Shown: positions 10,639 to 12,634 of the stretch, piece after piece
How the letters are laid out: every line of letters begins with the position of its first letter
How positions within the stretch are numbered: the stretch's first letter is position 1
Assembly (NCBI RefSeq): GCF_003334765.1
Contig: NZ_QOWT01000002.1
Length of the DNA: 64,000 nt
Direction: 5' to 3' (one strand)
Origin: Escherichia coli
GTDB taxonomy: Bacteria; Pseudomonadota; Gammaproteobacteria; Enterobacterales; Enterobacteriaceae
Translations under genes and position numbers: made by a program
Notes under the pieces: generated by a model
What the model saw: the letters and a program-made list of their open reading frames with translations, nothing else
What the model was told of the DNA's origin: nothing
Databases searched by the model: none

Positions 10639-11094
10639 TTACAAATCATCAAGGAAAGTTTTATCCAGTTGTTTGAAGGCGCGCTTAAGCGTGTCAGCTA
10701 ATGCCTGGTAATCAGGCTTGCCTTCAACGGGTGCCAACACCTGTCCAGACTCCTGCAATTTACCGCGAACTTCATAAAACCAGTTAAGGATTGCAGGGGG
10801 TAATGGCGTGACAGAACGCTTGCCCAGCCACCACAATCCCTGCATGGGTAAACTTAAGGCGAACAGGGCAGTGGCAACTGCCGGCCCAAGCTGACCGCCC
10901 AGGGCAATCTGCCAGCAGAGAGTAAATACGGCGATCGGCGGCATAAAACGGATCGCATAACGCGTCATCTTGATAACGCGATTTTCGACAAAGACCGGGG
11001 CAAGGCGTTTTTCCAGCGGCCACGTCTTTGAGTAATGCTGTCCCCGGCGAAACAAGCTAAAAAAATTAACAGAACGATTATCCGGCGTTGACAT
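10639..11094 (-). CDS. yfbV: UPF0208 inner-membrane protein YfbV
   Basis: 151-aa ORF matching YfbV; two predicted transmembrane segments. Confidence 0.92.
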
Positions 11095-11431
11095 GCTTCA
11101 CCTCAACTTCACATATAAAGATTCAAAAATTTGTGCAAATTCACAACTCAGCGGGACAACGTTCAAAACATTTTGTCTTCCATACCCACTATCAGGTATC
11201 CTTTAGCAGCCTGAAGGCCTAAGTAGTACATATTCATTGAGTCGTCAAATTCATATACATTATGCCATTGGCTGAAAATTACGCAAAATGGCATAGACTC
11301 AAGATATTTCTTCCATCATGCAAAAAAAATTTGCAGTGCATGATGTTAATCATAAATGTCGGTGTCATCATGCGCTACGCTCTATGGCTCCCTGACGTTT
11401 TTTTAGCCACGTATCAATTATAGGTACTTCC

Positions 11432-12634
11432 ATGTCGAGTAAGTTAGTACTGGTTCTGAACTGCGGTAGTTCTTCACTGAAATTTGCCATCATCGATGCA
11501 GTAAATGGTGAAGAGTACCTTTCTGGTTTAGCCGAATGTTTCCACCTGCCCGAAGCACGTATCAAATGGAAAATGGACGGCAATAAACAGGAAGCGGCTT
11601 TAGGTGCAGGCGCCGCTCACAGCGAAGCGCTCAACTTTATCGTTAATACTATTCTGGCACAAAAACCAGAACTGTCTGCGCAGCTGACTGCTATCGGTCA
11701 CCGTATCGTACACGGCGGCGAAAAGTATACCAGCTCCGTAGTGATCGATGAGTCTGTTATTCAGGGTATCAAAGATGCAGCTTCTTTTGCACCGCTGCAC
11801 AACCCGGCTCACCTGATCGGTATCGAAGAAGCTCTGAAATCTTTCCCACAGCTGAAAGACAAAAACGTTGCTGTATTTGACACCGCGTTCCACCAGACTA
11901 TGCCGGAAGAGTCTTACCTCTACGCCCTGCCTTACAACCTGTACAAAGAGCACGGCATCCGTCGTTACGGCGCGCACGGCACCAGCCACTTCTATGTAAC
12001 CCAGGAAGCGGCAAAAATGCTGAACAAACCGGTAGAAGAACTGAACATCATCACCTGCCACCTGGGCAACGGTGGTTCCGTTTCTGCTATCCGCAACGGT
12101 AAATGCGTTGACACCTCTATGGGCCTGACCCCGCTGGAAGGTCTGGTCATGGGTACCCGTTCTGGTGATATCGATCCGGCGATCATCTTCCACCTGCACG
12201 ACACCCTGGGCATGAGCGTTGACGCAATCAACAAACTGCTGACCAAAGAGTCTGGCCTGCTGGGTCTGACCGAAGTGACCAGCGACTGCCGCTATGTTGA
12301 AGACAACTACGCGACGAAAGAAGACGCGAAGCGCGCAATGGACGTTTACTGCCACCGCCTGGCGAAATACATCGGTGCCTACACTGCGCTGATGGATGGT
12401 CGTCTGGACGCTGTTGTATTCACTGGTGGTATCGGTGAAAATGCCGCAATGGTTCGTGAACTGTCTCTGGGCAAACTGGGCGTGCTGGGCTTTGAAGTTG
12501 ATCATGAACGCAACCTGGCTGCACGTTTCGGCAAATCTGGTTTCATCAACAAAGAAGGTACCCGTCCTGCGGTGGTTATCCCAACCAACGAAGAACTGGT
12601 TATCGCGCAAGACGCGAGCCGCCTGACTGCCTGA
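11432..12634 (+). CDS. ackA: Acetate kinase
   Basis: 400-aa ORF matching AckA ([20 protein letters not shown]...). Confidence 0.97.

Follow-up and report, generated by a model that had tools for sequence, protein, structure and literature searches.

Inverted repeats between divergent bacterial genes invite comparison with several described systems, among them the palindromic operators of LacI and CRP, class II promoters activated by FNR, closely spaced divergent promoters and stem-loops that act in RNA. Stem-loops in 5′ untranslated regions (5′-UTRs), such as the 5′ hairpins of ompA, shape the stability and processing of mRNAs, and such structures can obstruct scanning by RNase E. Those of CopA/CopT and RNAI/RNAII nucleate the pairing of sense and antisense RNAs via kissing loops. 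At class II promoters, contacts by the carboxy-terminal domain of the RNA polymerase alpha subunit (alpha-CTD) are expected upstream of the activator. Here we examine two inverted repeats, IR1 and IR2, located in the 337-bp spacer between the divergent genes yfbV (minus strand) and ackA (plus strand) of Escherichia coli. The spacer is part of a 64,000-nucleotide stretch of contig NZ_QOWT01000002.1, hereafter called the window, whose numbering is used throughout.

The ackA-pta genes control acetate overflow and acetyl-phosphate signalling, and they are a frequent target of metabolic engineering and adaptive mutations. An initial annotation, made from the sequence alone, had proposed that both palindromes mark operators of dimeric transcription factors. 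The reading we favour, with slightly better than even confidence, is that the two are unrelated features of a spacer that carries multiple promoters and is transcribed in both directions. Judged from comparative sequence analysis, IR2 would be a stem-loop selected for base pairing and most likely acting in RNA, and IR1 would be an assembly of core-promoter parts. IR2 looks like an ordinary mRNA-leader hairpin rather than a new operator. No earlier description of this stem-loop was found in Rfam, where a scan of 10900-11600 against release 15 gave only a chance match to snoR66 (19.1 bits against a gathering threshold of 43, E = 0.36), or in the searchable literature; the FNR site, control by the small RNA SdhX at the ribosome-binding site, and the transcription start sites (TSSs) of the region have already been published.

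Identity of the spacer is 99-100% in all but one of the 5426 complete genomes of E. coli (5425), and the sequence agrees with the annotation of strain MG1655 (NC_000913.3 2,413,133-2,413,469). Window positions are obtained by subtracting 2,402,038 from NC_000913.3 coordinates. For U00096.2 we take the coordinate to be the window position plus 2,400,060, an offset assumed from the U00096.2 coordinates of ackA.

Conservation and covariation of the IR2 stem-loop

The initial annotation had located the arms of IR2 at 11315-11322 (atcatgca) and 11337-11344 (tgcatgat), with an inner dyad formed by tgcaaa (11319-24) and tttgca (11330-35), and all of these positions are accurate. Its estimate that the two elements lie about 90-170 bp upstream of ackA also agrees with the distance of 88-170 bp to the ATG at 11432. 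Both arms can be extended to a perfect 9-bp repeat (CATCATGCA, 11314-22, and TGCATGATG, 11337-45). A third copy of CATCATGC, direct to the first copy and inverted to the second, had been overlooked. The inner dyad is specific to Escherichia and exhibits no covariation.

For each of the 34 species with the block ATGA[TC]GTTAATCAT, folding predicts a stem of 8-11 bp, with the pairing partner located 10-15 nt upstream. These species comprise 20 Enterobacteriaceae plus representatives of Serratia, Yersinia, Rahnella, Hafnia, Brenneria, Pectobacterium, Acerihabitans and Photorhabdus, and thus the stem-loop extends over five families of Enterobacterales (Enterobacteriaceae, Yersiniaceae, Hafniaceae, Pectobacteriaceae and that of Photorhabdus). 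In the alignment, the right arm belongs to an invariant block (GCATGATGTTAATCATAAATGTC). RNAalifold retains the stem, and the other helices it draws consist of invariant columns only.

For the pair counts, the conserved core fixed the register, which was then extended with no gaps allowed. In this register 84.8% of the cells are paired, compared with 15-52% in slid registers, and Watson-Crick pairs account for 218 of 252. Cells in which both bases have changed number 27, against 13.0±2.8 in shuffles (0/500), and the covariation score is 0.246 against 0.160 (0/500). Pair 1 changes from A:U to G:C and pair 7 from C:G to U:A or G:C, whereas pair 8 is found as C:G, G:C and A:U, and pair 9 occurs in four Watson-Crick types. 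For example, the E. coli stem CATCATG-CA/TG-CATGATG has -TG/CA- at its inner end in Serratia and -CCTG/CAGG- in Kluyvera, and its outer CATC/GATG is replaced by CGTC/GACG in Mangrovibacter. In Pectobacterium (CATTGTGTC/GGTATGATG) pairing is kept only through four G:U pairs.

The span from arm to arm takes six values among the 34 species (28, 29, 30, 31, 32 and 34 nt). Even within E. coli the A run of the loop is polymorphic, with nine A residues in REL606 (positions 52-60 of our locus L082) and eight in the window (11322-11329). In Erwiniaceae and Budviciaceae an FNR-like box persists some 91-94 nt ahead of the ATG, but the IR2 stem is missing. Taken together, the compensatory changes, the non-conserved loop, the variable span and the loss in these two families point to selection for base pairing, and not to a dimer site of fixed geometry.

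The view of the initial annotation, that IR2 is a DNA operator of a dimeric transcription factor, is in our judgement distinctly unlikely. On this view one subunit would bind each arm, upstream of and overlapping the FNR site of the ackA promoter P2. The dyad is perfect over 9 bp and of a kind rare in shuffled sequences, it occupies positions -74 to -43 of a regulated promoter, and both arms show good sequence conservation over their outer 7 bp. However, the spacing of the half-sites is not fixed, given that the span differs between species (28-34 bp) and by 1 bp within E. coli. Nor is the sequence conserved symmetrically, since the inner pairs vary yet stay complementary, and the left arm of Pectobacterium can pair only through G:U. 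Moreover, the hairpin has been lost in Erwiniaceae and Budviciaceae while the box and the -10 element remain, and the binding data that we found for this region concern FNR only.

The chance occurrence of such repeats was assessed with 2000 dinucleotide-preserving shuffles of the 337-bp spacer, searched for perfect 9-bp inverted repeats with spacers of 3-25. At least one was present in 3.7% of shuffles and at least two in 1.1%, and an 8-mer occurring three times within 70 bp was seen in 0.2%. The 64-kb window contains 57 such 9-bp repeats, or about 0.3 per 337 bp, and therefore they are not rare in real sequence. It would nevertheless be very surprising if both palindromes were chance or neutral features of an AT-rich spacer. 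The background frequency of perfect 8-9 bp inverted repeats across the window (about 0.3-0.5 per 337 bp) is compatible with this explanation, and IR1, which shows no selection for pairing, may be such a feature. For IR2, persistence with covariation in 34 species of five families argues strongly against it, and the low proportion of shuffles with two 9-bp repeats also speaks against it.

Transcription of the spacer and the FNR-dependent promoter P2

SMRT-Cappable-seq data (Yan et al. 2018, supplementary file 4) place ackA-pta TSSs at 2,413,246, 2,413,333, 2,413,426 and 2,413,430 (window 11208, 11295, 11388 and 11392), an ackA-only TSS at 2,413,305 (11267) and a reverse yfbV-yfbU TSS at 2,413,290 (11252). 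The E. coli ackA::gfp fusion of Miyakoshi et al. (Vogel lab) begins at GCCTGAAGGCC (11209), in agreement with the distal TSS at 11208. The sequence fits three of the mapped starts, namely those of the distal ackA promoter P1, the yfbV promoter and P2. P1 is conserved across Enterobacterales in the alignment, and its transcripts carry a 223-nt leader containing both palindromes. The hexamers of the yfbV promoter were read from the sequence and its TSS was taken from SMRT-Cappable-seq; the start falls 7 nt past the -10 hexamer, and the arrangement fits a sigma-70 promoter. Plus-strand promoters for the TSSs at 11267 and 11295 have poor hexamers, and both of these starts are weak. A promoter scan returned only two low-scoring minus-strand sites. 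Shimada et al., using genomic SELEX (gSELEX) with RpoD, predicted CTGAAA-16-TAGACT as an ackA promoter, and no Cappable-seq TSS matches it.

Transcription also occurs in the opposite direction. Huang et al. (2020) reported an abundant double-stranded RNA (dsRNA) cluster dependent on RNase III (S-188), of the divergent 5′-overlap type, at U00096.2 2,411,203-2,411,785 (window 11143-11725), and Miyakoshi et al. mentioned a Salmonella yfbV TSS inside ackA, an antisense start that is reported for Salmonella only. The dsRNA cluster and this Salmonella TSS together indicate that both strands are transcribed across the palindromes. ackA is made as long-leader and short-leader mRNAs: IR2 lies downstream of the TSSs at 11208, 11267 and 11295, and is thus transcribed in three long-leader mRNAs, while the short P2 mRNA that starts at 11388 is without it.

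The true operator of the region is an FNR box adjacent to and overlapping IR2. Its 14 bp (ATGATGTTAATCAT) share 6 bp with the right arm and run beyond the end of the palindrome as it had been drawn. The box is centred at 11346.5, which is -41.5 from the TSS at 11388 and hence the class II position. The TGAT-N4-ATCA core occurs three times in 64 kb (1.23 expected) and once in the spacer (11340-53). A gap of 22 bp separates the box from the -10 hexamer (TA..CT, TACGCT in E. coli) in 33 of the 34 species. Occupancy by FNR has been seen by chromatin immunoprecipitation (ChIP) in two studies, with a ChIP-chip peak in this region, whose motif call extends leftwards into the IR2 loop (Grainger 2007), and a ChIP-seq peak at 2,411,404-410, or window 11344-50 (Myers 2013). 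In fnr- cells, ackA and pta are expressed at 0.11 and 0.10, a drop of about 10-fold. Myers et al. put the site at -74.5 relative to another TSS, a value that we were unable to reconcile with the Cappable-seq TSSs; the implied start would be near 11421, where no good promoter is visible. Our analysis assigns the known FNR site to a mapped TSS, from which it has the canonical class II distance. The initial annotation was thus right that the region is regulatory and holds the operator of a dimeric factor, as the ChIP peaks, the fnr dependence and the -41.5 position of the box attest; this operator is neither of the dyads that had been flagged.

We found no protein other than FNR, which is centred on 11344-50, reported in the literature to bind over the palindromes. 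A literature search with the FNR-box sequence returned only an engineering primer, and the ArcA ChIP supplements consulted list no ackA or yfbV site. Herron and Doebeli (2013) described an identical +T insertion (REL606 2,356,984) in two experimentally evolved populations of E. coli B. Situated on the 3′ border of the FNR box, the insertion would move the box by 1 bp and turn TAAATG into TTAAAT.

The left arm of IR2 could also be pictured as an auxiliary DNA element of P2, such as a second FNR half-site or an alpha-CTD or UP-like contact, with the symmetry as a by-product. The arm contains ATCAT, an FNR-like half-site, and the A/T-rich loop (-66 to -58 of P2) occupies the part of a class II promoter in which the alpha-CTD would be expected to make contact; Grainger's motif call likewise reaches leftwards into the loop. 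We nonetheless hold this to be highly improbable. There is no matching second half-site 9 bp from the left arm, and such a role leaves unexplained the compensatory changes at pairs 7-9 and the G:U-only complementarity in Pectobacterium and Brenneria.

Table 1. Coordinates of the features discussed in the text (window numbering)
Feature	Position	Strand	Remarks
yfbV	10639-11094	-	window annotation
P1, distal ackA promoter	11173-11218	+	-35 TTGTCT 11173-78, 18 bp, -10 TATCCT 11197-11202, TSS 11208
yfbV promoter	11252-11286	-	-35 TTGCGT 11286-11281, 16-bp spacer, extended -10 TGG CATAAT 11267-11259, TSS 11252
IR1 left arm, TATGCCATT	11261-11269		perfect 9-bp arm, repeat finder
IR1 right arm, AATGGCATA	11287-11295		perfect 9-bp arm, repeat finder; 17-nt spacer from left arm
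IR2 5′ arm, CAUCAUGCA	11314-11322	+	conserved stem-loop
IR2 loop	11323-11336	+	A-rich in Enterobacteriaceae, sequence not conserved
IR2 3′ arm, UGCAUGAUG	11337-11345	+	last 6 bases form the start of the FNR box
FNR box, ATGAT-GTTA-ATCAT	11340-11353		8/10 match to TTGAT-N4-ATCAA, TGAT/ATCA core intact
Parallel adaptive +T insertion	11353-11354		TCAT^AAATG, 3′ edge of FNR box, -35 region of P2
Third copy of CATCATGC	11366-11373	+	can pair with 11338-45 in E. coli
P2, FNR-dependent ackA promoter	11376-11388	+	-10 TACGCT 11376-11381, 7 nt before TSS 11388; second TSS 11392
ackA	11432-12634	+	ATG at 11432; pta also in the window

Several further features of the spacer deserve brief mention. In E. 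coli the P1 TSS is followed by a 5′-terminal stem-loop, GCC-UGAA-GGC (11209-18), and this stem differs between genera, reading GGCC/GGCC or CCGGCC/GGCCGG outside E. coli. A dyad, GACAA-N13-TTGTC (11155-11177; ATGACAA...TTGTCAT in most other genera), spans an A/T-rich region and the -35 element of P1 and is strongly conserved in sequence; it could be an operator or an UP-like element. The repeat TTCAC-CTCAAC-TTCAC at 11097-11113 has the form of a cre-tag direct repeat and would be a CreB site for ackA. The minus strand of this segment is the yfbV Shine-Dalgarno region (GAGGTG) and its bases are nearly invariant in Enterobacteriaceae, and this conservation may reflect translation signals rather than CreB. 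At 11183-11199, overlapping the spacer and -10 element of P1, TACCCAC-TA-TCAGGTA resembles a 7-2-7 heptamer pair of NarL/NarP; only the right half, which also bears the start of the P1 -10 element, is conserved in other genera.

Two candidates were considered and set aside. A sigma-54 promoter was suggested by the TGGCA present in both IR1 arms (GG-N10-GC, TGGCAC-N5-TTGCA), but the -12 GC is missing on both strands; an RpoN gSELEX peak is listed for the spacer, where there is no promoter-like sigma-54 element. An upstream open reading frame of 53 amino acids (11262-11423), together with its AUG at 11340, is interrupted by stops and frameshifts in other genera, as judged by eye from the alignment. 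Outside the spacer, SMRT-Cappable-seq also maps a pta-only TSS at 2,414,486 (12448), inside the ackA coding sequence, which would be an internal promoter uncoupling pta from ackA. The dsRNA cluster S-188 extends over the entire spacer and 290 nt into ackA, implying substantial antisense transcription over the 5′ region of the gene.

Enterobacterales share the divergent order of yfbV and ackA with Vibrionales, Pasteurellales, Aeromonadales and Shewanella, synteny being observed in Vibrio, Photobacterium, Aeromonas, Pasteurellaceae and Shewanella (loci L043-L080). FNR-box searches revealed no comparable module of box and hairpin upstream of ackA in Vibrio, Pasteurellaceae, Aeromonas or Shewanella. 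In Kluyvera genomosp. 1 (L008), the spacer has 464 bp instead of about 337, owing to a 127-bp insertion between the equivalents of 11243 and 11244. Judged by its size and by being partly self-complementary, the insertion may be a small repetitive element of the intergenic type.

IR1 and the yfbV promoter

The arms of IR1 had been reported as atgccatt and aatggcat separated by 16 bp. The left one is indeed found at 11262-11269, whereas the right one occupies 11287-11294, one position beyond the end at 11293 originally given, and the spacer is 17 nt. A more distant pair, TTGAGTC (11237-43) and GACTCAA (11296-302), flanks the element.

Most of the symmetry coincides with parts of the yfbV promoter. 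Read on the minus strand, the left arm is AATGGCATA and constitutes most of the extended -10 element (TGG plus CATAAT, 11267-11259). The ackA-only TSS at 11267 lies within this arm as well. The right arm corresponds to positions -35 to -43 of the same promoter, directly upstream of the -35 hexamer TTGCGT (11286-11281), and its last base is the ackA-pta TSS at 11295. IR1 shows no sign of selection for pairing: among the 20 Enterobacteriaceae, 68.6% of the cells in its nine pairs are paired, a level that shuffles match (68.4%; 268/500), and only three cells are double-changed. The most conserved bases are a block in the spacer, CTGAAAA..GCAAAAT, together with TA(G/A)A(C/A)T at 11294-99. IR1 is not recognisable outside Enterobacteriaceae. 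An RNA hairpin formed by IR1 was also considered and rejected, because its pairing equals that of shuffles and other genera fold this stretch differently. In our reading, IR1 is a family-restricted symmetric sequence built of core-promoter parts, for which core promoter elements largely account.

The competing proposal for IR1 is a genuine operator, on which a symmetric regulator bound to TGCCA (11263-67) and TGGCA (11289-93) would repress the yfbV promoter by covering its -10 element and the region adjacent to the -35. The arms are perfect over 9 bp, the two cores are about 60-75% conserved in Enterobacteriaceae and the site straddles a mapped promoter. Furthermore, the missing covariation counts against our own account of IR1 to the extent that a protein operator would show the same, and is compatible with such a site. 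We still consider an operator unlikely here. With 26 bp, or 2.5 helical turns, between their centres, the half-sites face opposite sides of the helix, and the conservation is asymmetric and strongest in the spacer. What conservation the arms do have is explained on the left by the extended -10 element of yfbV and on the right by the adjoining -35 and the TSS. The element is also absent outside Enterobacteriaceae, and no factor binding here was found in the literature.

Resemblances to known motifs were considered and discarded, given that spacing or half-sites seem not to fit: TGCAAA-N5-TTTGCA recalls a TyrR box, the spacer of IR1 has sequences like PurR and Cra half-sites, and GTTAATCATAAATGT is reminiscent of an ArcA direct repeat. 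The spacer offers a cautionary case, in which a dyad adjacent to a promoter appears not to be the operator, and the real operator is a different dyad that overlaps it.

Proposed role of IR2 and comparison with known systems

The overlap of IR2 with the FNR box suggests how the stem might evolve. The 3′ arm would be held at the DNA level as the upstream half of the FNR box of P2 and hence could not change freely, and the 5′ arm and inner pairs would evolve to stay complementary to it. We propose that the 5′ arm follows the 3′ arm because the bases of the latter also form an FNR half-site. In RNA, IR2 might serve as a structure that determines what becomes of the long-leader isoforms, perhaps by blocking 5′-end-dependent access of RNase E to the AU-rich segment UUAAUCAUAAAUGUC that follows, or by marking a processing site. 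A role in stability or processing is proposed because a hairpin followed by this AU-rich segment is a typical RNase E context, and we would rank it ahead of sense/antisense duplex formation, with a DNA-level contribution to P2 last. If the stem does affect mRNA fate, acetate metabolism would be subject to an isoform-specific post-transcriptional layer, alongside the small RNA SdhX.

With regard to the strand, G:U pairs exceed A:C mismatches by 17 to 7 when pairs 0-8 are read in the plus-strand sense, in lineages that are related and not independent, and this excess mildly favours an RNA of the ackA sense.

Several observations weigh against our preferred interpretation of IR2 and should be kept in mind. 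The shuffle control takes no account of phylogeny in a set of related sequences, and the minimum-free-energy fold of each sequence served to anchor the register. The relatedness of the lineages also affects the G:U excess. Mean stem energies are similar on the two strands (-11.7 and -12.4 kcal/mol), the dsRNA cluster at 11143-11725 implies transcripts from both, and IR2 may act on either. Folding of the E. coli leader as a single sequence is only marginally better than that of shuffles (z = -1.93), and the E. coli stem competes with an almost isoenergetic alternative fold. Finally, from its place upstream of the class II FNR site (-74 to -43 of P2), IR2 could have a role at the level of DNA.

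The alternative fold raises the idea of an attenuator-like switch, in which pairing of the first CATCATGC copy with the second would compete with pairing of the second with the third, and would thereby control a downstream terminator ending in the U7 run at 11398-11404. The two E. coli folds are nearly isoenergetic, the winner depends on the transcript ends, and RNAalifold draws a long-range helix (AAAUGUCAG/CUGACGUUU) that ends in the U run. Of all the explanations considered, however, this is the one to which we give the least credence. The helix between copies 2 and 3 is 68.7% paired, compared with 68.8% in shuffles, with zero double changes; copy 3 is Escherichia-specific and degenerate in other genera; and the long-range helix is made of invariant columns with no covariation. 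A terminator scan found no terminator-like site in 11000-11500, and IR2 is followed by UUAAUCAUAAAU, whereas an intrinsic terminator has a GC-rich stem directly before a U run. The U run also falls within the short P2 leader that starts at 11388. It belongs to an almost invariant block, CTGACGTTTTTTTAGCCACGTATCA (11392-11417), that in long transcripts can pair with AAAUGUCAG (11354-62), again without covariation.

A more elaborate possibility is that IR2 takes an active part in regulation as an RNA. The ackA long leader and an antisense RNA toward yfbV might carry complementary hairpins that nucleate a duplex cut by RNase III, or IR2 might be an element of dual DNA and RNA use, linking what happens to the aerobic long-leader ackA mRNA with the very bases that FNR reads anaerobically. 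The first version resembles CopA/CopT and RNAI/RNAII in that an abundant RNase III-dependent dsRNA cluster is present here, IR2 folds on both strands with complementary loops, and its pairs are overwhelmingly Watson-Crick. Unlike in those systems, neither the sequence nor the size of the loop is conserved, and we judge such an active role quite improbable.

As at other closely spaced divergent promoters, the yfbV TSS (11252, minus strand) and the ackA TSSs (11208, 11267 and 11295, plus strand) interleave within 90 bp, and the IR1 arms take up the -10, -35-adjacent and +1 positions of promoters on opposite strands; unlike in such arrangements, the centre of IR1 (11278) is the symmetry centre of no single TSS pair. 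Perfect dyad symmetry in a divergent promoter region is shared with the operators of LacI and CRP, from which IR2 departs in its variable spacing and compensatory evolution, and IR1 in its asymmetric conservation and in half-sites that are 2.5 turns apart.

The FNR box differs from those of other class II promoters (TTGAT-N4-ATCAA near -41.5) in its outer bases, which are A and T instead of T and A, and in that it neighbours the flagged dyads rather than being one of them. In other respects it corresponds to them well, as ATGAT-GTTA-ATCAT keeps the core, lies under the ChIP-seq peak at -41.5 of FNR-activated ackA-pta, and retains this architecture across Enterobacterales. IR2 differs from the stability hairpins of 5′-UTRs such as that of ompA in that no mapped transcript has it right at the 5′ end, with 19 nt between it and the closest upstream TSS, and in that its 3′ arm doubles as an operator half-site. 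Like them, it consists of a simple hairpin conserved within a long leader, it precedes an AU-rich single-stranded stretch, and only some promoter isoforms carry it.

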